Shown in pieces: positions 4,722 to 23,695 of a stretch of DNA of 64,000 nt. The notes below the pieces were generated by a model. That model was not told where the DNA came from. It saw only the letters and a program-made list of their open reading frames with translations, and made no database searches. The DNA is taken from NCBI GenBank assembly GCA_024975835.1, contig GCA_024975835.1_4840.1; one strand, 5' to 3'. This stretch comes from a phage. Position numbers and translations under genes: made by a program. Every line of letters begins with the position of its first letter. The first letter of the stretch is position 1.

Positions 4722-6062
4722 TTATAGGCCAAGAGCCTTTTCAAGGTCATCAAGGTCTTCAGTGTAAAGATCGATGTCCTCTTTCTTACTTAATTCCTTG
4801 TGCTGTGCTTCAAGGTTCTCAATCTGCTTGAGTAGGCGCTCACGGGCATCCAGAGTAATAGACGACAGAGGCATCTTGAACAACTCGTCAAGATCACCAC
4901 CAAAGTCCGGGTAGTCCTGCATGAACAGAGACTTCAGCACGTCAATCTTTTGGCGGAGATCAACACGCGTCGCCCATTCAATGAACACCGCCCGGTCACC
5001 CAGCTTGCGGATCCTGTCTGCCATGTCCTTCAACAGATACTGGCGACGGTCTTCATACCGTGACAGGCGATAATTGAAGAACGGCAGCAGCATATCCCGC
5101 CAACCAGAATAACGATGAATGACACCGTCTTCATCCCATGCCGTCCAAACAGGCTTGTTGGCTGAATACAACTTGAACATCTGCTCAACCTGCTCGTCAC
5201 TTAGCTTAGAGAGTTCGCCGCGCTTAAACACAACCGTGATATCCCAGCCGTCTTCGGTCGTGTCGTTGGCGTACTCGGTGAGGATACCAGCCTTGTACAG
5301 AGGCAGCAACACCTTGGTCTCATAGGTTTTGGCAAACCAACCCACTGGGACTTCGGTGATATGCAGGGTGGTGGCATTGACGCGACGGAAGATACCGCGA
5401 CTGTATGCTCTTCCTTCCTCAGTATAGCCTGTCTCTCCTTTGAAGCCGTTCCAGTACGGTTTTAAGTCTTTCGGGTCTTCGCCACGGAGAAGCGCTCTCA
5501 GGGCATTCAGCACGGACTTAACGCAATGACACGGGGTGTCGGTGGAATATCCGGTGCCGATACCATTGATCCCATTCACCAGGAACATGGGCAGGATGGG
5601 CAGAAAGAACTTCGGCTCTAGCCTTTCTTCACCAAGGTAGTTGTATTCCAAGATACCCTCATCCTCCTTGCGGAAGATCTTGCGGATAACATCAGACACA
5701 GCCACCGAAATGTAACGTGCTGACGACGCGTCGCGCCCCATGATAGAACCAAACTGGCCATCGCGGTCAAAGTACGGGATGTTGTTCGTGCCTGGGAACC
5801 CCTGAGCCATGTTCACGATAGTGCCGCTCATGTTCTCACCACCAGACTTGTAGTTGGTGCGAGCGGCGGCGAACATACCAAGGCGGTCAACAATCTCCTC
5901 CTTGTTGTACTCAAGAGCAGCGAAAAGGATCTTGCGCTGGCTTGGCTTGAGGCTGTCAATCAGCTGAGGGATTTGACGGATGCTGTTGACCACAGAAAAC
6001 TGCTTATGGTCAGTGTTGACAAAGTCCGTTACAGTAATGCTCTTAGCAACCATCTTATTCAT
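4722..6062 (-). CDS. 52: DNA topoisomerase II medium subunit (T4 gp52-like)
   Basis: Type II topoisomerase A-subunit-like sequence directly downstream of the ATPase subunit; start moved to internal ATG near the upstream stop. Confidence 0.8.
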   Translation of the reverse strand: MNKMVAKSITVTDFVNTDHKQFSVVNSIRQIPQLIDSLKPSQRKILFAALEYNKEEIVDRLGMFAAARTNYKSGGENMSGTIVNMAQGFPGTNNIPYFDRDGQFGSIMGRDASSARYISVAVSDVIRKIFRKEDEGILEYNYLGEERLEPKFFLPILPMFLVNGINGIGTGYSTDTPCHCVKSVLNALRALLRGEDPKDLKPYWNGFKGETGYTEEGRAYSRGIFRRVNATTLHITEVPVGWFAKTYETKVLLPLYKAGILTEYANDTTEDGWDITVVFKRGELSKLSDEQVEQMFKLYSANKPVWTAWDEDGVIHRYSGWRDMLLPFFNYRLSRYEDRRQYLLKDMADRIRKLGDRAVFIEWATRVDLRQKIDVLKSLFMQDYPDFGGDLDELFKMPLSSITLDARERLLKQIENLEAQHKELSKKEDIDLYTEDLDDLEKALGL

Positions 6063-13682: not shown

Positions 13683-16439
13683 TTATGCCCTGATAATGGA
13701 ATTTGAAATAACGTCCAAGTAATCCGAAGATTTTTCAATCGGGTTCAGGGCGCTTGGTTTGTAATTCTCTTTCAAGAACCGGACAACACGATGACGCTCG
13801 ATGGTCAATCGGTTTTCCCGCCTTGCTTTCAATGACGGAGTCCTCGATATATCAAACGGTGTAAATCCATGAAACCGCAACACATCCGAAGCGCATTCAA
13901 AGATCTGTAGCATCTGATGTTCTGAACGGAAGATCTTTTCGTCACGCTCGTTGGCGTACAAATTCACGTTAAGAGAATGTATTGTGTCCTGGAAATGGCT
14001 AAATCGACGCTTGTCATTGATTGAAACCGGGGCTTTCGCCAGGCTTTGGTAATGACGTACAGTCTGCTCATCCAAGATATCGTCCACAACTTTCATTAAC
14101 TTGTTGTAACGGCTGACCAATTTGCCATAACGATCGTCTTCAACATCACCAAACGCCTGATGAACCAGATGGCTCCCGTATTTTAATCGATCCGCCCCAA
14201 GGCGCATGCGGCGGTATGATTCCAGTATGCGCTTGGCGCTATCGCGCTCCATCATAGGCTTCACGTTTTCCAACATGATCTTCAGGATTTCATCGATCGG
14301 TATGAAGACCTCTGGGAACTTCTTCATCATTGGCACGGATTTACGACGAGCCAAGAAGATTCGGTTGTGAACGTTCAACATATCGCTGATGTACACTGGC
14401 TTGCCTTCATCGTCGACACTGACTGCGTGCTCATACAGAGATTTACGAATACCCCGCGCCGCCGCAGTCGTCAACGTTCTGTCCATCACCTGATGGATAC
14501 ACGCATGGCCAGACACCTCAATATAGACGATGCGCTCGCCCTTGTTGATGATATCTGAGATCTGGTCGCCCGTTAGTTCTTCATACTGGTATATGTCGAA
14601 GTTGCTGCGCGTGAACGGAAACAGGCCAGGGTCTTTGGTGACCGGGGGCGTGACATACGACAGTTCGTTCATGAACTTGACTTCAGCAGGCTCCAACACC
14701 GCACTCAGCCAATCGACGAACTTGTCGGCGAAGCACAGATAATCAACCGTCGTTTCTTCTTTACCAATCCAAGTTTCAAAGAAATCATAGAGAGCCTGAG
14801 AATTCTTGAACGCAGGGTTGTCCTTAGATTGGTTGCGCTTGGTGACATAGGATGTGTTCGGCTTGGCCACGATGACTATCGTCCCTGTATCTTTCAGCTG
14901 CTTGATCTTCAGGTTACGAGCACGAACACTATCTTCGATCACCACAGTAACATGCTGGCCGCGATCAATCCACTTCTGGATTTCTGAAATGGTCAAATTA
15001 CTGGACTCACCCCAGTCATAGAAGATCTCCATAGAGAACGGCGATGACAGCTCATTGAACGGCGCGGTATGGTCATAATCGCGATCTATCTCAACAGGCA
15101 GCGGGTAACGGTAATATGAATCATGAAAGCGCTTGTCTGCCGGGTATTCCTTTTCAACCATCTTGCGGAACCCACTGCCGAACATTTCACTCAGTTTTAC
15201 CTTCTCCATATACAGGGCAAGAGGACCACGCTTACACGCCAGCTCCAGGTCACGCATCTTTTCTGTCAAGATTGCATTGGCGGTGCCCTTAAACTCCTCA
15301 GAGAGCGTCTCACGCGTGAATTCGTCATATGAAAGGTCTTCACGCGACGGTGGTACGTTCAGCGAGCCAAGTTCGAAGAACGTATAGGACGATGGAAACT
15401 TGCTCATGATGGAAGCAGTGTCCGGGTCCAGCTGGTCCAGGTCAATCGGGTACGACACGCCACCCATTACAGCATAATGGGTGTTCCCCTGACCTTTCGG
15501 CTGGATGTACGTGTTGTTGACCTTGAAATCATAACTGATATCTTCCCAGCTGAAGCGGTATGAAGCGTTCTCAACAATTGGACGTTGTTCAGGGCGCATA
15601 ACACGACCAAGGCGAACCAGTTCATCAGAGAATGCGGAGAAGCGAGCGTTCTTCACCGGGATCTTCACCGTCATGCCGTTGAACTCATCGGTGTCTTCCG
15701 GCTTAGGATCACGGGTTTCAAGATCTTTGGTGATCAGGTCAACAGTCGGGATGCGCTTGGCATTCAGGTACATCAGGAAGCGATGGAGTTTACCGTCCAT
15801 GCGGCTTTCCACAGTGAACGAATCCGATACCGCAAATGGTGATTTGGAGCCAAGACCGAATGCCCCAATCTGATCATCATCTTCTTCCTTCGTACTGTGG
15901 AAGAGAGTGGTATACAACCCAGGCGTACGAATGATTTCACCATCTTCGCGACGGAACACTAGACCACCATTATAGAACGCAGGCACGCCGATGACCTCAG
16001 CTGAGTCAGGGATCTCATCTTCCTTGACCACCATGTTGCCTTCCAGCAACACTTCATCTTCCTGCGCTGGGATAGGCTCGCCAATGATCTTCTCAAGTGG
16101 CAGACCGATGCCGTAATCACGGATTTCCAGCCATGGCTCAAAGTCATCAGGTAGATGCACAACAACCTGCTTACCCTTCGGTGCAAGGTATTTGCTATGG
16201 CGGGCAGGAGGCGGAGTGAGAGGCGCGTAGTGGGACGCCATCACACGGTGCATACGATCACGCATGCCATGGGAGTCGATGGCGTTACAGACGGTTTCGC
16301 GCAGGGCTGCAGCCTCTTTGTAACGATACAATGATGAGAACAGAGTCTCAAACATCTTATCGTTCATCTTCACGTTGAACGCCTGCCCCTGAATGGAAGA
16401 CGACGAGCGGATAAAGTGCTCGGACTTGCGCATTTTCAT
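13683..16439 (-). CDS. rIIA: rIIA-like protein (N-terminal GHKL/Bergerat ATPase fold)
   Basis: N-terminal NAIDSH and IRDYGIGL boxes plus GAFGLGSKSPF glycine box, as in T4 rIIA; 918 aa; adjacent to rIIB-like and topoisomerase genes. Confidence 0.65.
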   Translation of the reverse strand: MKMRKSEHFIRSSSSIQGQAFNVKMNDKMFETLFSSLYRYKEAAALRETVCNAIDSHGMRDRMHRVMASHYAPLTPPPARHSKYLAPKGKQVVVHLPDDFEPWLEIRDYGIGLPLEKIIGEPIPAQEDEVLLEGNMVVKEDEIPDSAEVIGVPAFYNGGLVFRREDGEIIRTPGLYTTLFHSTKEEDDDQIGAFGLGSKSPFAVSDSFTVESRMDGKLHRFLMYLNAKRIPTVDLITKDLETRDPKPEDTDEFNGMTVKIPVKNARFSAFSDELVRLGRVMRPEQRPIVENASYRFSWEDISYDFKVNNTYIQPKGQGNTHYAVMGGVSYPIDLDQLDPDTASIMSKFPSSYTFFELGSLNVPPSREDLSYDEFTRETLSEEFKGTANAILTEKMRDLELACKRGPLALYMEKVKLSEMFGSGFRKMVEKEYPADKRFHDSYYRYPLPVEIDRDYDHTAPFNELSSPFSMEIFYDWGESSNLTISEIQKWIDRGQHVTVVIEDSVRARNLKIKQLKDTGTIVIVAKPNTSYVTKRNQSKDNPAFKNSQALYDFFETWIGKEETTVDYLCFADKFVDWLSAVLEPAEVKFMNELSYVTPPVTKDPGLFPFTRSNFDIYQYEELTGDQISDIINKGERIVYIEVSGHACIHQVMDRTLTTAAARGIRKSLYEHAVSVDDEGKPVYISDMLNVHNRIFLARRKSVPMMKKFPEVFIPIDEILKIMLENVKPMMERDSAKRILESYRRMRLGADRLKYGSHLVHQAFGDVEDDRYGKLVSRYNKLMKVVDDILDEQTVRHYQSLAKAPVSINDKRRFSHFQDTIHSLNVNLYANERDEKIFRSEHQMLQIFECASDVLRFHGFTPFDISRTPSLKARRENRLTIERHRVVRFLKENYKPSALNPIEKSSDYLDVISNSIIRA

Positions 16440-16893: not shown

Positions 16894-17034
16894 AACATAT
16901 CCTCTACTTTTTGGGTTCGGTTTTACTTAATCGAGCGACCTCTGCTCGAAGGAAGATTATCTCGTCGGTCATCAAACATCACCCATGATCTGCCTAACTT
17001 AGGATTGCCAACGGACAAATCCTTCAGGCGCTCC

Positions 17035-17235
17035 TCACTTACGTTTGCGCTTGTTCTTTCCATGAGTCTTCGCCTTCTTCTTGCGGGTTACAGACGGGCG
17101 ACCATGTCCCGGTTCGCCGGGTGTGCCACCCTGAGTGTAACGACGCCCCCACATGTCATCACCACGATGCGCGGCGACGATTTCCATTTCTGACAGCGCT
17201 AGCATAGCAGCAACAGCCGCAGATGATTTCTTCAT
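17035..17235 (-). CDS. small protein with Lys/Arg-rich C-terminal tail
   Basis: 66-aa ORF, AAGGGGGA site, ATGA overlap with upstream gene. Confidence 0.4.
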   Translation of the reverse strand: MKKSSAAVAAMLALSEMEIVAAHRGDDMWGRRYTQGGTPGEPGHGRPSVTRKKKAKTHGKNKRKRK

Positions 17236-17687
17236 TTCGTTTCCCCCTTGGCAGCATAGGACAGTGCCTTGACGATCATTACAGCCAGATCGATCGGCGA
17301 GTAGGTGCTGTTCAGATCTTCTCGAACACTCTGCTCTATTTCTTCATCAGACTGGACTACAGGACAGTTCTTTCCCTGGCGACGGCGTTCTGTGTTGATC
17401 ATATCACGCAGGAGCAGATCGGTGAAGGAGTACTCATCAAAGTTTTCCAGATAATTCTGAATCCCAGTGGATACAGGGGTTGGCTCCGGTTCCTGTTCTC
17501 CAGGATCTTTCAGGGCAGCAACAGTGGCATCAATATCCCACAGAGGGTTCAGCAGTAACAGAAGATTAACTGTTTCTCCTGACTCTGAAGTCGGGTTATT
17601 TCCCAGCACCTTGTACAGATTCTTCAGGGTGCTGTCGAAGGTCAGAACGGTCTGCGCCAGTTCTTCATAAGTTGGTTTGGTAGTCAT
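17232..17687 (-). CDS. hypothetical acidic protein
   Basis: ORF-track TTG start lies inside a terminator hairpin; trimmed to in-frame ATG (MTTKPTY) preceded by GGAG. Confidence 0.45.
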   Translation of the reverse strand: MTTKPTYEELAQTVLTFDSTLKNLYKVLGNNPTSESGETVNLLLLLNPLWDIDATVAALKDPGEQEPEPTPVSTGIQNYLENFDEYSFTDLLLRDMINTERRRQGKNCPVVQSDEEIEQSVREDLNSTYSPIDLAVMIVKALSYAAKGETK

Positions 17688-17754
17688 CAGCGTTTGCTCC
17701 GGCGTTTGTTCTTCATCTTTCTTGGCTTGTCTGTCATGTTCCTGTCCACGAAAA

Positions 17755-17796
17755 AGGGGATAGAGCAATAATACCCTATCCCCTTTTATTGAAGAA
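17755..17796 (-). promoter_or_regulatory. terminator hairpin overlapping a sigma70-like promoter (TTCTTC-N17-TATTAT)
   Basis: GGGGATAG...CTATCCCC hairpin with TTTTT tract after the 17800 gene stop; minus-strand -35 TTCTTC at 17796..17791 and -10 TATTAT at 17773..17768 in the loop. Confidence 0.4.
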
Positions 17797-17799
17797 CGA

Positions 17800-18213
17800 T
17801 TAGTCTTCAGATTCTACTTTGCCGCCTCGTAGATCCCGAACTGGTTTACCGTCCGGTGCCATCACATAAATGGTGTTGATTGTCTCAAACCAAGACAGCT
17901 GGTCAACACCCTCGGTGTATGGGGTCACCGGAACAGAAGTCTTGACCTCTTTGCCTTTCGTGTTCGGATGTTCAACCACATCCAAGAACGCACATTTCCC
18001 GCTCGGAAGGATCACACCATCAGTAAACAGCACGATCTTCTTGCGAGGGTTGCTGGCCTCACCCAGGCACACCACCAGATGATGGATCATCTCGGGGCGG
18101 TCAATCAACATGTCGTCTTTGATAATCCCTTGCTTGATAGCAGAGATCACCACCTCATCCAACAGAGCCTGCTGTTGGTCCAGTGTCAGGGATTCAGTGA
18201 GTTTCACGCTCAT
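17800..18213 (-). CDS. hypothetical protein
   Basis: 137-aa ORF. Confidence 0.45.
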   Translation of the reverse strand: MSVKLTESLTLDQQQALLDEVVISAIKQGIIKDDMLIDRPEMIHHLVVCLGEASNPRKKIVLFTDGVILPSGKCAFLDVVEHPNTKGKEVKTSVPVTPYTEGVDQLSWFETINTIYVMAPDGKPVRDLRGGKVESED

Positions 18214-18217
18214 GACA

Positions 18218-18787
18218 TCAGCCTTTGAAGTTAATCGGTTTCTGAATACCAGCGTCGAACGCGGCCTGGGTACGGGTATCGCTCACCACCTGGCAGGTCT
18301 TGTCAAGGTCGATACGCGGGTAGCCGAACATGCCAGCAATCAACGAACCAGGGAACTGAGCCAGCTTGGTTTCGTATATTGTGCAGATATCCAGCTTCTT
18401 GGTCTGGCTGATGCGGAATTCATCACGCCCAGAACTGATCACCACCTGGATCTCTTTGTACAGGCTGGAATCGAACTGAATATTCTGCTCCTGGATCCAC
18501 TGCATGACGGCCTTGGAACCATCAGCACCATAACGCCCTTCGAACGTGCCTTTGATCACTTCCTTCAAGCCGTCTTTATACATGTCAGGAATCTGCGCCG
18601 TCTCCTGAACTTTGAGCGTGTAGTTGCTCAGGTAGTTCTCGGAGTCTTTGTTGAACTTCTTGACCTGCTGCTCAGTGCGGTTGAAGTCGTTGAAGTAGCT
18701 GATGACTGTACCGATGCCGAGAATCACTACACCCAGAAAAGCCAAACCAACTATCCAACCTGTTGCAATACCCTTAGATTGAGACAT
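18218..18787 (-). CDS. LemA-family membrane protein
   Basis: N-terminal transmembrane helix; C-terminal GRDEFRISQTK...FPGSLIAGMFGYP matches the LemA signature; AGAGGAAG site. Confidence 0.6.
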   Translation of the reverse strand: MSQSKGIATGWIVGLAFLGVVILGIGTVISYFNDFNRTEQQVKKFNKDSENYLSNYTLKVQETAQIPDMYKDGLKEVIKGTFEGRYGADGSKAVMQWIQEQNIQFDSSLYKEIQVVISSGRDEFRISQTKKLDICTIYETKLAQFPGSLIAGMFGYPRIDLDKTCQVVSDTRTQAAFDAGIQKPINFKG

Positions 18788-18805
18788 TCTTACTTCCTCT
18801 TTTGA

Positions 18806-19921
18806 TTAAAAATTAAACGGATAACGACGACGGCCACCATTGTACTCCATTCGCTGTAATATGAAAATTGCGGTGAATGGTAAGCAGCCCAGCAGAACAA
18901 CAACCACAACTTCCCAGGTCTTGAGTTCCCGCCACTTCAGGTACTCCATTTCCTTCATCTCAACGCGGTTGTAGCCTTTGGTGATGTTAGCGACAACATC
19001 AGCCATGACACCGACACCCATGTCGTGGCCTGTGAGAGCCATGCCATTGCGAGAATGGAGTTCACGGTTGTGCATACCATCAGCGAACGAAGTGCTCTTA
19101 CCCCAGTTGATCTTCAGGTCTTTGTTGATGTCGGTCACGACGATAACGTCGTTCTTTTTACCACCATCCCAAGCATAGACCAAGCCCTGGAAGTATTCAA
19201 CTGGCTGCCCGGAAGTCACAACCCAGACGATGTTCACCTGCTTGGCTGCGCCCAGCTTCTTCAGGGCATCATTCAGATAATCGTTCCAGTATGTGGTCGG
19301 TAACGCCAGGCCGGACACGTTCAGCACACGAGTGACGCGATAGTAGTCATAGACTTCGGGATACTTCGGAATCTTGTCTTTGAAGCGCTCAGCAAACTGC
19401 TGGTCTGAACGAGAGAACAGAGAGTCTTTGTTGCCCAGCACATAATTCATATATGAATGTTCACGTGCCGCAGGTTCCCCGATTTTAACTTGTGTCCAAC
19501 GCGGAGGCTCTGTAGTACCCTGACGATCAATACGGTCAATGCTCAGATCGCCGACGGTTGTTAATACATCCCAATCAACGTCATAAGAGTGCTCATAGCA
19601 TGTGCTGCAATGACGCGTTTGTGTACAAGATCGGTTATTTCCTGAACCTGTACAAGATGTTGTGTAATAGCACATACATTCATATGAATGCTCACAGCTC
19701 ACCTTATTGCGCTCCTTGCCAGTGACGTATCCGTTCAGGATCTCAACGTCCCCTGAACTGCCGAGGGAGAACGCAGCATAAGCCCCGACCTGAATCAGAC
19801 AGGACAGCACCACCACAATCGCCGTCGCTATCAGGGTCTCTTTCGGCTCATGGGTCTTGCGGTGGTAGGTCACAAACAGGATAGCCAGTACCAATGGCAC
19901 ACCAAACAGGAGGTAGATCAT
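18806..19921 (-). CDS. TPM-domain-like membrane protein with Cys-rich region
   Basis: Transmembrane segments at both ends; ten-Cys segment; VWVVTSGQPVEYFQGLVYAWDGGKKNDVIVVTD resembles the TPM core; paired with LemA as in bacterial LemA-TPM loci. Confidence 0.5.
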   Translation of the reverse strand: MIYLLFGVPLVLAILFVTYHRKTHEPKETLIATAIVVVLSCLIQVGAYAAFSLGSSGDVEILNGYVTGKERNKVSCEHSYECMCYYTTSCTGSGNNRSCTQTRHCSTCYEHSYDVDWDVLTTVGDLSIDRIDRQGTTEPPRWTQVKIGEPAAREHSYMNYVLGNKDSLFSRSDQQFAERFKDKIPKYPEVYDYYRVTRVLNVSGLALPTTYWNDYLNDALKKLGAAKQVNIVWVVTSGQPVEYFQGLVYAWDGGKKNDVIVVTDINKDLKINWGKSTSFADGMHNRELHSRNGMALTGHDMGVGVMADVVANITKGYNRVEMKEMEYLKWRELKTWEVVVVVLLGCLPFTAIFILQRMEYNGGRRRYPFNF

Positions 19922-20304
19922 TTGGATTCACCGACGAGCTGTGCCTTGGTCATCCCAAGGAGTTGATCTTTATGCTCAGGATTGGCACCGTTCTTTAACA
20001 ACAAATCCCAACGCTCTTCATGGTACTGTGGAGTTATTGCATCGTCAAAAGAAACATGGTGGCGATGCATAATTGTTGCAACGGTGTGAAGAACGATTGC
20101 TGTTGCTCTTTTTAAAGCACGTGTATCCGTGATGTGGTCTTCGTATTCGATTCCCAACAAATCGAGTTCTTTTCGGATATATGCTATAGACAAATTACCT
20201 TCAGAATGCAACGCGACGATAGTGGCTTTCTTAGGGTGGAGTGTACCATCCGTTTCTTTCATGAACAGATCGTACAGGTACTGTTTGTATTCGGACTGTG
20301 TCAT
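19918..20304 (-). CDS. hypothetical protein
   Basis: 128-aa ORF overlapping neighbours by 4 nt. Confidence 0.45.
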   Translation of the reverse strand: MTQSEYKQYLYDLFMKETDGTLHPKKATIVALHSEGNLSIAYIRKELDLLGIEYEDHITDTRALKRATAIVLHTVATIMHRHHVSFDDAITPQYHEERWDLLLKNGANPEHKDQLLGMTKAQLVGESK

Positions 20305-20513
20305 TTAGATTCTCCCATGACGATAACAGGAGCGCCATTACGGAAACAACTATATTCTGCAGGAAGACCTTCGCGAACCTTCTGGGCGAACGCTTCAGAA
20401 ACAACCAAACGACCAACCAGAGGTTCTTTTTGTTTTGGGGTGGACTCAAAGTAATCACCAAAAGTCGCTTCCATATCGAGCGCAGACATGTCTTCAATTC
20501 GTTGCATTGCCAT
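20301..20513 (-). CDS. hypothetical protein
   Basis: 70-aa ORF. Confidence 0.4.
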   Translation of the reverse strand: MAMQRIEDMSALDMEATFGDYFESTPKQKEPLVGRLVVSEAFAQKVREGLPAEYSCFRNGAPVIVMGESK

Positions 20514-20524
20514 GATATAGGACC

Positions 20525-20716
20525 TCAGTATAATTTCGTATAAACTTGTTTAACGCCAATATCGGCAGGAGCTGTGCTCTGCTGCATATTATAGAATGCC
20601 AAATCTGCTTGTTCTTTGTTTTCAAAATCAACTACAACTGTGTGTACTGATATTGCTTCACCCTGTCCATAAGCATAACAACGGCTGGTGACCAATATTT
20701 TGTATTGAGGTGTCAT
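20525..20716 (-). CDS. hypothetical protein
   Basis: 63-aa ORF with AAGGA site. Confidence 0.4.
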   Translation of the reverse strand: MTPQYKILVTSRCYAYGQGEAISVHTVVVDFENKEQADLAFYNMQQSTAPADIGVKQVYTKLY

Positions 20717-20738
20717 AAATCAATCCTTGCAAAAAGAA

Positions 20739-20780
20739 AGGGGAACGGGCTAATATTAACCCATTCCCCTTTATTGAAGA
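20739..20780 (-). promoter_or_regulatory. terminator hairpin overlapping a sigma70-like promoter (TTCTTC-N16-TAATAT)
   Basis: AGGGGAACGGG...CCCATTCCCCT hairpin followed by TTTCTTTTTGC on minus; -35 TTCTTC at 20780..20775, -10 TAATAT at 20758..20753 in the loop; same layout as 17755. Confidence 0.4.
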
Positions 20781-20797
20781 ACGCAATCCGCAGTCAG

Positions 20798-20965
20798 ATT
20801 ACTTTTTCTTCAGCTCTTCCAGCTTGGCTTCGATTTGTTCCAGGATGTCCTTACCCTTCTGAACAATCACTTCACCGTCTTGCGCGTGTTTACGGAAGAC
20901 CAGAGCACCAGCTACGAAACCGACAACAACGCCAGGAAGCGCGTACACCAACAGATCTTGTAACA
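20798..20965 (-). CDS. small single-pass membrane protein (55 aa; below ORF-track cutoff)
   Basis: ATG at 20965 preceded by GTGAGGA; MLQDLLVYALPGVVVGFVAGALVF transmembrane segment then charged tail. Confidence 0.4.
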
Positions 20966-21002
20966 TGATAATATCCTCACTTTATAGGCGAGGATATTTA
21001 TA

Positions 21003-22241
21003 TCAGCGTTTCAAGAGTGTCATGAGGTTGACGCTATGTTTGCGCGGCTGCTTGTCCTCAACCTTGCGCACAGGCATCTTCAGGTTCGTACATACCTCGG
21101 ATGGTTCCCAGCGCGTACCCTTTTGCAGGTGCCAGATGTGCAGAGGAACGCCAGTCTCAAAGAACACAGGCATCTTCCACTTCTGGACGCCTGGAACGTG
21201 CCCTGCAGGAGCCTTTTCACACAACAGGGTATCTGGCAGCCAGAGCGAACGGGCTTCCCAGAGCGCTGCGCAGGAGTATTCAGGCCAGACGCGTTCCATG
21301 TAGTCTATCTCATCCCAGGTACGCTCTGCGTCCCACCCGATGTAACGGGTATTCTTCAGTCGGAAGAACTTCTTCAGCCAGCATGCACCGGAGGTTTCAA
21401 AGTTCAGACGGTTGATGAACGTCAGGTGCCCGAACTCAGCCACACAATCCTGGAACGCCTGCTCAAGGTCGGCCTCAAGGATGTCACACTCTTCATCCGT
21501 GATAGGACAACCGTTGATCTTTTTCTTCCCGTGTTTAGTCACCCAATCGTCACGGTTGGACAAGAACGCCGCGCCATTACGGTTGGACTCGCTTCCATCA
21601 CGATCACGCAGCATGAAGCCAGGGACGTCAATGGTGTATTCGTTCCCGAAGACCATGTTCAGGGCTTCCAGGAAGTTCCAGGCGCTCAGGCGACCGAAGT
21701 ATTTCCAGGACATCGCCGTGTCCCACAGCTGGGTGAATTGTTCTGTCTTATCGATGCACACCAACATCCCACGGAAAGCGTCATATTGAGTACGGCCAGC
21801 CAGCCAGTCAATATAGGACTGAACACACGGAATCATCTTGGACTTGCGGTAGCGACAGTCGGTATCGAATCGCATGCGTTCAAAGTTCAGGTTATACCAA
21901 TCAGAGAAGCGCTGCATCTCTTCCTTAGACTGAGGCGGCACAGGGAACTCACTGTAGATTGTCCACGGTCCGACAGCGTTATAGCAACAACCCCACAGGA
22001 ATGCCATCCAGATCTTGCGCTCGACTTTCTGTTCGAGGCTGATGCCTTCAGTGACTTCGATCGCATAGTCCATCAGACGCATCTGCTGGTTGTGCTCTTC
22101 TGTGTAGGACAGCGCCTCCACCCAAGCCTTGAGCAGGTACATGCGATTCTCAGGCTTGCGATAATCAACAGCCAGGTCAATCGGGTACTTCCATTCAGCC
22201 GGAGGCGTATAGCCCGTCGGCATTTTAGATAAATGATGCAT
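21003..22241 (-). CDS. conserved hypothetical protein (412 aa; candidate DNA-modification enzyme)
   Basis: Trp/Cys/Tyr-rich composition; the opposite-strand ORF is Arg/Leu/His-rich; sits with the P-loop kinase and HAD genes. Confidence 0.5.
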   Translation of the reverse strand: MHHLSKMPTGYTPPAEWKYPIDLAVDYRKPENRMYLLKAWVEALSYTEEHNQQMRLMDYAIEVTEGISLEQKVERKIWMAFLWGCCYNAVGPWTIYSEFPVPPQSKEEMQRFSDWYNLNFERMRFDTDCRYRKSKMIPCVQSYIDWLAGRTQYDAFRGMLVCIDKTEQFTQLWDTAMSWKYFGRLSAWNFLEALNMVFGNEYTIDVPGFMLRDRDGSESNRNGAAFLSNRDDWVTKHGKKKINGCPITDEECDILEADLEQAFQDCVAEFGHLTFINRLNFETSGACWLKKFFRLKNTRYIGWDAERTWDEIDYMERVWPEYSCAALWEARSLWLPDTLLCEKAPAGHVPGVQKWKMPVFFETGVPLHIWHLQKGTRWEPSEVCTNLKMPVRKVEDKQPRKHSVNLMTLLKR

Positions 22242-22581: not shown

Positions 22582-22781
22582 TTTGGTTCCTTGAATATTT
22601 TATAGCCAGCAGCGCCGATAGCCATAATCGCGCCGATACAATACAACATGGTCAGGTTCATCTTTTCTGAGGTTGTTAAGTCCAGAGGGGTGAAATGATA
22701 GGCTAGGGCAGTACACATTGAAACGGCTGCCATAACCAGACCAATGAACAACAGATAATTAGACAACCGTTTCATGATCAC
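22578..22781 (-). CDS. small two-helix membrane protein
   Basis: 67-aa ORF with two hydrophobic segments; ATGA overlap with kinase stop. Confidence 0.4.
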   Translation of the reverse strand: MIMKRLSNYLLFIGLVMAAVSMCTALAYHFTPLDLTTSEKMNLTMLYCIGAIMAIGAAGYKIFKEPK

Positions 22782-23695
22782 CCCTTCTTCATCAGGTCAA
22801 GGAGAGAGCGCGACGCTGCCTTCGTTGCTTCTGGCTGGGCGCTCGCCTTGGTTTTAGTTTTGGATGCCTTCTGCGGCTTCTCAGGGACTCTGTGCGCCAA
22901 AGGATCCTGGCCGCCGATTTCACGAGTCATCGGATTGGTTTCACAGTAGGCGTAGAAGTCTTTGGTGTCCATGTTAACTTCACGCAGTTCGGACCGTATC
23001 TGATGACAAATCGCATTACCCACAACCCACAGCGGGGCGTCGAACGGTAGTACCGCCAACTCGGACTGCTGTTTGGTCGTGAACTCCTGGGTGTTGGCGT
23101 CCGGTGATTTATACAGGATATCCTGTCCGCTGTAATCATCAACAGCCACAGTGAAGCCCAGCGCCAGCATTTCGGCCTTCGACTTCTCAAACTCCTTGTA
23201 GTAAGATTCGTTGCGCGACCAGCCGGAGTTCCCTGCTTCTTTACCAGATCGACCACGGATACGAGCATCGTACTGATAGCGGTCGGGGTACGCAAAGTAC
23301 AGCAGCGCCAATGATTCAATCGGATAGTTCTTGAACATCCATTCAGGACGCCATTTGTCCGATAGCATGAGGGGTTCACCCTCGCACACCAGAGTGTATC
23401 CCTGAACCAACCAGCACTTGATTAGATCACGAGCAATATCGCCTGAGCCTGTAGCAGCATGGATTGCATCCATTGAAGTCCAGGAAGCCAGGCCGGATTT
23501 GTTAGACACGGTGTACTGTCCAACGAAGATTAACTTCAGCTCTCCGAACTTCAAGCCAAACGGGCGAGTCTTGTCACCAACGGTGTAGGTCAGTTCGGTA
23601 GGCTCCAGCTTAGTGCGCAGCCATTCGATGAACTGGACCACTCTCGTACCCTTGCCCGTGGCCGAGGTGCCTTTCACTACGATAATTTTTGCCAT
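22778..23695 (-). CDS. P-loop kinase (candidate 5-hydroxymethyl-dU DNA kinase type)
   Basis: N-terminal Walker A IIVVKGTSATGKGTR; 305 aa; Lys-rich C-terminal tail; identity beyond P-loop kinase not established. Confidence 0.55.
   Translation of the reverse strand: MAKIIVVKGTSATGKGTRVVQFIEWLRTKLEPTELTYTVGDKTRPFGLKFGELKLIFVGQYTVSNKSGLASWTSMDAIHAATGSGDIARDLIKCWLVQGYTLVCEGEPLMLSDKWRPEWMFKNYPIESLALLYFAYPDRYQYDARIRGRSGKEAGNSGWSRNESYYKEFEKSKAEMLALGFTVAVDDYSGQDILYKSPDANTQEFTTKQQSELAVLPFDAPLWVVGNAICHQIRSELREVNMDTKDFYAYCETNPMTREIGGQDPLAHRVPEKPQKASKTKTKASAQPEATKAASRSLLDLMKKG

Follow-up and report, generated by a model that had tools for sequence, protein, structure and literature searches.

We describe a pair of adjacent genes at positions 18218-19921 of a 64,000-nucleotide stretch of phage DNA (contig GCA_024975835.1_4840.1 of GenBank assembly GCA_024975835.1; hereafter the window), which encode a 371-residue membrane protein and, downstream of it, a 189-residue LemA-like protein. 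We consider it very probable that the two constitute a self-contained module of the inner membrane that faces the periplasm, in which a divergent LemA is joined to a partner with three transmembrane (TM) helices, a disulfide-bonded β domain and a TPM-fold domain; that this module is a phage-adapted form of the bacterial LemA-TPM system, spread horizontally among lytic phages of Gram-negative bacteria with genomes of at least 100 kb; and that it is produced inside the infected cell, no packaging into the virion being known. An earlier reading of the letters alone (the sequence-only reading) had proposed a LemA-family protein translated directly after a membrane protein with a TPM-like core. This observation is essentially correct, with family assignments that hold by remote-homology and fold methods only. 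The span it gave for the pair is exact, both open reading frames (ORFs) being co-directional on the minus strand and separated by a spacer of 18 nt:

18806-19921, minus strand: gene of the 371-residue partner (phrog_2087), defined by its ORF, a PHROG match (E = 9.5e-164), an AlphaFold (AF2) model and 2137 family representatives
18218-18787, minus strand: gene of the 189-residue divergent LemA homolog (phrog_1383), defined by its ORF, the hhalign comparison with bacterial LemA and 2ETD as top PDB match
18320-18355, minus strand: FPGSLIAGMFGY, the LemA C-terminal signature motif (residues 145-156), aligned to bacterial LemA

Whether the 189-residue protein is recognized as a LemA depends on the method used. 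The Pfam LemA model (PF04011) scores it at only 13.7 bits (E = 0.056), over residues 125-158, and thereby misses the gathering cutoff of 26.2 bits; no precomputed Pfam domain is found on any of its roughly 130 database homologs. A profile built from 50 phage homologs, however, retrieves the LemA crystal structure 2ETD as its best match in the PDB (E = 6.7e-4, residues 29-158 against 9-155), and when this profile was aligned with hhalign to eight bacterial LemA proteins, whose genes had been fetched from plasmids with the TM0961 sequence (200 bits on PF04011), the probability was 96.6% (E = 4.8e-10), the 141 aligned columns reaching from the membrane anchor as far as the FP..FG motif. The sequence-only reading had made its family assignments depend on significant matches to LemA and TPM profiles: single-sequence searches with hidden Markov models returned none, and homology became detectable with profile-profile and fold methods. 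Among the best 120 matches listed, a large-database search with the LemA-like profile gave close phage relatives only and no bacterial LemA.

The C-terminal motif on which the LemA proposal had been based was confirmed, since in the alignment FPGSLIAGMFGY falls on the FG and the invariant F161/P162 of the bacterial LemA proteins. Only a few other positions coincide, namely an invariant arginine (R85/R74), Y70/Y59 and a YN anchor motif. The LemA core motifs (RRxDLIPNL, seen as RRADLIPNL in the bacterial proteins, AENYPxLK and vEn..aR) are not kept in the phage family, which has QVPxMY, GRYGADGSKAxMQWIQEQN and aGRxEF in their place. The Pfam model misses the protein because its core motifs have largely been replaced by these family-specific ones. 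The AlphaFold model is all-helical (pLDDT 84; helices 4-63, 68-82, 87-100 and 107-143), with a single N-terminal TM anchor at residues 4-35 followed by a helical bundle, and a Foldseek comparison with the PDB lists 2ETD at rank 3 with the highest probability (0.47; TM-score 0.32-0.39) but with E = 0.53. Judged at profile level, the 189-residue protein is a genuine but divergent LemA, related to the bacterial family by remote homology.

The 371-residue protein had been described as a membrane protein, and hydropathy bears this out with three hydrophobic segments at residues 1-21, 27-55 and 333-358. Its AlphaFold model, computed from 50 homologs (pLDDT 88, pTM 0.77), is predicted to have the following layout, with the third TM helix near the C-terminus:

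19757-19921, minus strand: residues 1-55, two N-terminal TM helices (hydropathy; model helices 2-19 and 26-54; conservation)
19448-19753, minus strand: residues 57-158, β-rich domain with seven cysteines (long β strands in the model; cysteine covariation)
18932-19327, minus strand: residues ~199-330, α/β domain with the TPM fold (structure comparison)
18809-18925, minus strand: residues 333-371, C-terminal TM helix and basic tail, GGRRRYPFNF (model and hydropathy)

The loop between the first two helices is short and basic (HRKTHEPKET), with a near-invariant E28. In the β-rich domain, cysteines 76, 82, 84, 90, 99, 105 and 108 are conserved, together with His78 and His111; what had been counted as a ten-cysteine region contains in fact seven cysteines, at residues 76-108 of the ectodomain, and with two more inside TM helices the protein has nine in all. 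The α/β domain contains an invariant, family-specific motif, W-x-G-G-K-K-N-D, at residues 251-258. Comparison of the predicted model with known structures identifies the core of this domain as a TPM fold, and a full-length but distant relative in a viral structure library (E = 3.6e-22) already bears the name 'TPM domain-containing protein'. Sequence searches did not recover this relationship: a Pfam scan for TPM (PF04536) found no match even at E ≤ 1, Pfam, NCBIfam and PADLOC returned no family match, and the profile of the partner family matched none of the PDB sequences. The TPM-like core therefore stands as a statement about predicted fold and not about sequence. Sub-threshold matches to DUF948, LeoBC, thylakoid ssl2009 and TcdA glucosyltransferase, seen in single-sequence scans of the two proteins, were rejected as chance.

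We observed that cysteines come and go in pairs in both families. In the LemA-like protein the pair spans the following segment:

18293-18385, minus strand: covarying cysteine pair of the LemA-like protein, with the Cys135 codon (18383-18385) at one end and the Cys165 codon (18293-18295) at the other

Of 50 homologs, 28 have Cys135 together with Cys165 and the other 22 have neither, with no case of a single one, and the number of cysteines after the anchor is 0 or 2 in 127 of 128 homologs. Among 162 unique partner sequences, C84 and C105 occur together in 122, singly in 1 and not at all in 39, the corresponding figures for C90 and C99 are 135, 3 and 24, and C76 and C82 are nearly invariant together. 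Such pairwise covariation points to disulfides, and hence to an oxidising compartment. About 6 of the 128 LemA-like homologs have a lipobox in place of the TM anchor, as do the LemA proteins of Pseudomonas and Burkholderia, and basic residues cluster at the N-terminus of the LemA-like protein, in the loop between the first two helices of the partner and in its C-terminal tail. From the covarying cysteines, the lipobox variants and the distribution of charge, the soluble domains of both proteins are predicted to be periplasmic. The partner accordingly shows the layout of YgcG-type proteins, a TPM fold (~199-330) followed by a TM helix (333-358) and a basic tail, with the extracytoplasmic location indicated by disulfide covariation in the adjoining domain.

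Searching 50,697 phage records with tblastn, we found 502 with the LemA-like protein and 488 with the partner. The statement that such pairs are not standard phage equipment was thus wrong in degree, as they occur in about 490-500 of these records and are common in large phages. The carriers include Ackermannviridae, the T4-like Aeromonas phages Aeh1, phiAS5 and PX29, the Vibrio cholerae phage ICP1, T5-like phages of Vibrio and Pectobacterium, Acinetobacter phages of about 100 kb, and jumbo phages (121Q/Rak2-like phages, CBB, Ea35-70, Lu11 and PaBG). Among the matches listed, the complete genomes measure about 100 kb or more, and all named hosts are Gram-negative. Across Ackermannviridae, T4-like and T5-like phages, ICP1 and jumbo phages, the proteins of the pair retain 34-48% identity and an invariant architecture, and in metagenomes the partner family comprises 2137 representatives at 50% identity, which without exception share one full-length architecture. 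The Prevotella Lak megaphages (MK250018, MK250020) match residues 60-186 of the LemA-like protein at 33-36% and are not among the partner matches listed; they may carry a LemA with a different or very divergent partner.

The survey of related phages that the sequence-only reading had called for shows strict synteny of the two genes. With the partner profile we fetched 80 viral contigs, 79 of which had room downstream of the partner gene, and in all 79 a LemA-like gene follows on the same strand, directly adjacent in about 73 and after an insertion of 0.2-1.3 kb in 6. Over 119 loci from 68 partner lineages, other gene families recur in at most 2-3 lineages; a third recurrent ORF cluster, which runs antisense within the conserved partner gene, proved to be an artefact. 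Only the LemA-like and partner genes recur together, which makes the pair an autonomous module. In Rak2-like jumbo phages, two genes precede the pair, one of the TelA toxic-anion/stress family (PF05816) and one annotated 'metallopeptidase' (121Q locus, positions 986-2891; CBB locus, positions 635-2850). The 'metallopeptidase' beside the pair in 121Q is by Pfam a Rv2179c-like 3'-5' exoribonuclease, which removes this candidate link between LemA and M48 proteases.

Cellular genomes contain the pair rarely: in 185,579 species-level bacterial and archaeal genomes we found only 39 loci, mostly on contigs of metagenome-assembled genomes, some of them phage-sized. The one isolate locus examined, that of Achromobacter anxifer LMG 26857, is phage-like and includes ORFans, RecA and a YqaJ recombinase; a gene with a match to the MscS β-domain (mechanosensitive channel), at positions 1650-2489 of that locus, lies some 2.4 kb upstream of the pair. 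Three of the 39 loci (L102, L135 and L137) have the bacterial order, with the LemA-like gene immediately before that of the partner, and may represent evolutionary intermediates linking the bacterial to the phage arrangement.

Pairing of LemA with TPM proteins in bacteria was confirmed, although the gene order is the opposite of that in phages. In 6 of 11 sampled bacterial LemA loci, LemA is followed by a YgcG-type TPM protein and a second TPM protein, with the TPM domains confirmed by Pfam; examples with PF04011 and PF04536 come from Pseudomonas fluorescens pG20, Burkholderia vietnamiensis pBVIE02, Ralstonia, Variovorax, Acidovorax and Leptospira. The remaining loci combine LemA with an HtpX/M48 protease (2 of 11) or with DUF2207, DUF3137 or an uncharacterised partner (1 of 11 each). 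LemA comes first in 11 of 11 bacterial loci, whereas the partner comes first in 79 of 79 viral loci. Since in the modules with HtpX/M48, DUF2207 or DUF3137 LemA again always comes first and is followed by a variable membrane-anchored partner, LemA may be a generic adaptor for membrane-bound effectors. The phage partner family shows no significant relationship by hhalign to DUF2207, DUF3137 or the uncharacterised LemA partner of Providencia, and its N-terminal β domain with the cysteines has no detectable relative among other LemA partners.

Phage and bacterial modules have in common a membrane- or lipid-anchored LemA domain whose gene adjoins that of an extracytoplasmic TPM-fold protein. The phage partner and the bacterial YgcG-type proteins also share the succession of TPM domain, TM helix and cytoplasmic tail and, in part, a basic-aromatic terminal dipeptide: a terminal [RK][WYF] is found in 61 of 260 partner sequences against 0 of 128 in a control set, an echo of the G(R/K)W terminus of the YgcG-type proteins that is suggestive only. 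The modules differ in that the phage gene order is reversed, that one partner gene replaces two TPM genes, that the partner carries, in addition, two TM helices at its N-terminus and a unique disulfide-rich β domain of 100 residues, and that it possesses neither the Gly-rich tail nor the sequence-level TPM signal of the bacterial proteins. The phage pair is hence a variant of the known LemA-TPM module, with reversed order, a single partner, additional TM helices and a disulfide-rich domain, and with the signature motifs lost.

TPM domains are also known from TLP18.3/Psb32/LMTP1 of the thylakoid lumen and from DUF5130 of the mycobacterial CIII2CIV2 supercomplex, where, as in the phage partner, a TM-tethered TPM domain lies on the extracytoplasmic or lumenal face of an energy-transducing membrane. 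The phage partner is, however, only 10-16% identical to these proteins, has lost the conserved TPM motif, carries an extra cysteine-rich domain and is paired with LemA; the likeness is one of fold and layout.

Several results weigh against our interpretation. The Foldseek match of the LemA-like model to 2ETD is not significant (E = 0.53). When the partner family was aligned with hhalign to 12 bacterial TPM proteins encoded next to LemA, the probability was 0.3% (E = 0.18), the short stretch that did align falling at the correct place in the TPM core; the TPM motif D-R-x-x-R-I-E-V-G-Y-G is absent from the partner. In the bacterial alignment D98, R99 and G108 are kept, whereas the phage partner has W-x-G-G-K-K-N-D and then a variable strand. 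Given that a different invariant motif replaces that of TPM, the activity of the partner may differ as well. A physical interaction of the two proteins is suggested by a single line of evidence, their strict synteny. We found no functional study of the phage families or of bacterial LemA in the literature searched (LemA in phages, LemA-TPM, LemA-HtpX and YgcG), our scan found no clear promoter for the pair that would indicate the timing of its expression, and the origin of the 'virion structural protein' label discussed below was not found, the papers on Ag3 and phiD3 having no list that includes the pair.

The sequence-only reading had suggested superinfection exclusion, envelope remodelling or lysis timing as functions, and we weighed these together with two other explanations. 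Exclusion, the foremost rival, in which a periplasm-facing complex would alter the entry route for the DNA of a later phage in the manner of T4 Imm and Sp, appears unlikely. Two inner-membrane proteins with periplasmic domains are in the right place to meet an incoming phage, their genes are accessory and sporadic in many lineages (T4 and T5 themselves are not known to carry the pair), and the gene context is neither structural nor lytic. Known exclusion proteins such as Imm and Sp are nevertheless small, fast-evolving and lineage-specific, unlike the pair, which is far more widely conserved and whose PHROG matches are not the Imm or Sp families. The identity and invariant architecture kept across unrelated virions with different injection machineries, together with the restriction to large phages of diderm hosts, point instead to a conserved host target and not to a phage-specific one, and this wide conservation argues somewhat against a phage-specific exclusion role. 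We give less credence still to counter-defence, whereby the module would shield the membrane from abortive-infection effectors that depolarise or permeabilise the inner membrane, following the logic of T4 rII against RexAB. The membrane location and wide horizontal spread among virulent phages, the accessory distribution and the TelA neighbours in jumbo phages are in keeping with such a function. The argument is nonetheless purely inferential: neither protein has homology to known anti-defence proteins, the sole PADLOC match is a weak and partial one to LeoBC (E = 8e-4) in a TM/coiled region, and the soluble domains of the pair are predicted to be periplasmic, whereas most membrane effectors insert from the cytoplasm.

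A role in the virion or in lysis is very unlikely. Lysis control could take the form of lysis timing, by an antiholin or a lysis-inhibition-like activity, or of a non-canonical spanin linking the membranes, and the topology of the LemA-like protein, an N-terminal anchor followed by a helical periplasmic domain, is indeed i-spanin-like, with a few homologs being lipoproteins. Like spanins (Rz/Rz1) and T4 Imm and Sp, the two are phage envelope proteins with periplasmic domains encoded by adjacent genes; they have no sequence relationship to any of these. The partner, however, has no o-spanin features, being a three-TM protein of 371 residues encoded upstream, where a spanin pair would have a small outer-membrane lipoprotein whose gene follows that of the i-spanin or lies within it, and the LemA-like domain has its homolog in a compact helical bundle of bacteria and not in an extended coiled coil. 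The pair also lies outside a lysis cassette, with no endolysin or holin gene in the annotation of its neighbourhood, and the related Kuttervirus phages have an Rz-spanin and an endolysin predicted separately (PMC9409062). By these features the pair is not a spanin or holin module, a point on which the sequence-only reading had asked for a check.

Of the explanations considered, we regard a structural protein of the virion as the least probable. What favours it are the database labels themselves: the LemA-like protein is called 'virion structural protein' in RefSeq records of Ackermannviridae and in phrog_1383. Neither member of the pair in LIMEstone1 (ORF194/195), however, is among the 39 virion proteins identified by ESI-MS/MS in that one phage, the gene lies outside the structural block, and the LemA-like protein, a homolog of bacterial LemA, is tethered to the membrane by a signal anchor; the LIMEstone1 proteome, the one checked, gives the virion label no support. 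The LemA-like protein P0154 of Pectobacterium phage DU_PP_V is recorded as 'major capsid protein', a feature under the match in Shigella phage Gloob as 'putative major capsid protein', and a feature under the partner match in Aeromonas phage DM12-TAAL (MZ768923.1) as 'nonfunctional major capsid due to mutation'. The name 'major capsid protein' is clearly wrong for the 189-residue LemA homolog, and the capsid labels are probably errors propagated between records. What probability remains belongs to explanations outside those set out here.

For the periplasm-facing LemA-TPM module that we favour, we propose a mechanism more tentatively. The LemA-like protein and its partner would form a complex in the cytoplasmic membrane of the host, and by analogy with TPM proteins and with the HtpX/M48 quality-control proteases that accompany LemA, this complex would act on the periplasmic face, helping there to stabilise, assemble or repair complexes of the membrane or to buffer stress on the envelope. 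A large phage would thereby gain a host inner membrane that stays intact and energised over its long latent period. TPM domains have been linked to the assembly and repair of energy-transducing membrane complexes and, as its partners, to PspA, and a chaperone-like role in membrane-complex assembly has been proposed for them (PMC11237479; bioRxiv 10.1101/2024.10.28.620569). The analogues that we invoke are TLP18.3/Psb32/LMTP1 in the repair and maturation of photosystem II, DUF5130 in the mycobacterial CIII2CIV2 supercomplex, and YdjH with PspA. That a TelA stress-family gene stands just upstream of the pair in Rak2-like jumbo phages is circumstantial evidence in the same direction. By these analogies, maintenance or remodelling of the inner membrane on its periplasmic face, buffering envelope stress, is the likeliest of the explanations considered, though at less than even odds in our estimation. 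A more specific and rather doubtful version is that of a 'life-support' device, in which LemA would serve as scaffold for a periplasmic TPM-fold protein with chaperone activity, or with phosphatase activity towards a phosphorylated lipid or protein of the envelope; the device would keep the inner membrane energised, or resist membrane-targeting abortive-infection effectors, during infection by large phages.

The source phage is a ViI-like member of the Ackermannviridae (Aglimvirinae): positions 17000-21000 of the window match 233 phage records, of which Escherichia phages RPN242 and A221 and their relatives are the closest, at about 94-95% identity. The pair belongs to a unit of six genes, within which conservation outside the Ackermannviridae is limited to the 371- and 189-residue genes, and the unit is bounded by twin terminators:

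20770-20783, minus strand: box CGTTCTTCAATAAA 5' of the upstream terminator, exact copy of 14 nt
20737-20772, minus strand: upstream rho-independent terminator, 16-bp stem (dG -25.8 kcal/mol, z -6.2)
17800-20716, minus strand: co-directional unit of six genes encoding 63, 70, 128, 371, 189 and 137 residues, from ORFs with overlapping or near-overlapping junctions
18793-18800, minus strand: Shine-Dalgarno sequence AGAGGAAG (GAGG, 8 nt 5' of the ATG of the LemA-like gene), in the 18-nt spacer
17785-17798, minus strand: box CGTTCTTCAATAAA 5' of the downstream terminator, exact copy of 14 nt
17753-17786, minus strand: downstream twin terminator closing the unit, 16-bp stem (dG -25.3 kcal/mol, z -6.0)

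Three weaker copies of CGTTCTTCAATAAA occur at positions 5070, 29101 and 35961 of the window, giving five matches in total against 0.41 expected, and the boxes and hairpins may form a family of repeated terminator elements. The T4 late-promoter consensus TATAAATA has a single match in the window, at 20995-21002 on the minus strand, which is the chance level (0.79 expected); it lies just upstream of a membrane ORF of 55 residues and the terminator that precedes the six-gene unit. At the equivalent site of LIMEstone1 a 'putative late promoter' is annotated.

Upstream of the pair, and oriented as it is, lie the DNA polymerase and thymidine-hypermodification genes; the pair does not stand among structural or lysis genes. 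Two minus-strand neighbours, at 21003-22241 and 22778-23695, are homologs of an α-glutamyl/putrescinyl thymine pyrophosphorylase (clade 2) and of a P-loop nucleotide kinase; going by these names, which were taken from the annotation of the close relative OL656110, they are thymidine-hypermodification genes typical of ViI-like phages. Just past the downstream terminator, an ORF of 178 residues (17232-17768, minus strand) encodes a DUF7181 protein (Pfam E = 1.5e-64), whose listed TTG start is probably too far upstream. Further on, an ORF of 918 residues (13683-16439, minus strand) has no Pfam match; by eye we noted in it the motif GAFGLGSKSPF, reminiscent of GHKL/Bergerat ATPases.

LemA (PF04011) and the bacterial TPM/YgcG proteins are very widespread envelope proteins for which the literature searched gives no function, and a rearranged, streamlined version of their module ranks among the accessory cassettes that large lytic phages of Gram-negative bacteria share more widely, with the therapy-relevant Ackermannviridae and the Vibrio cholerae phage ICP1 among its carriers. 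As an immediate consequence, the present label of phrog_2087, 'unknown', can be replaced by that of a periplasmic membrane protein with a TPM fold. If the 'life-support' proposal is true, the compact and dispensable phage-borne LemA-TPM version would offer the first tractable genetic handle on the function of LemA and bacterial TPM proteins. The phage copy is easily deleted or expressed alone, so that it could show how the module affects the inner membrane and for what reason large phages need it.

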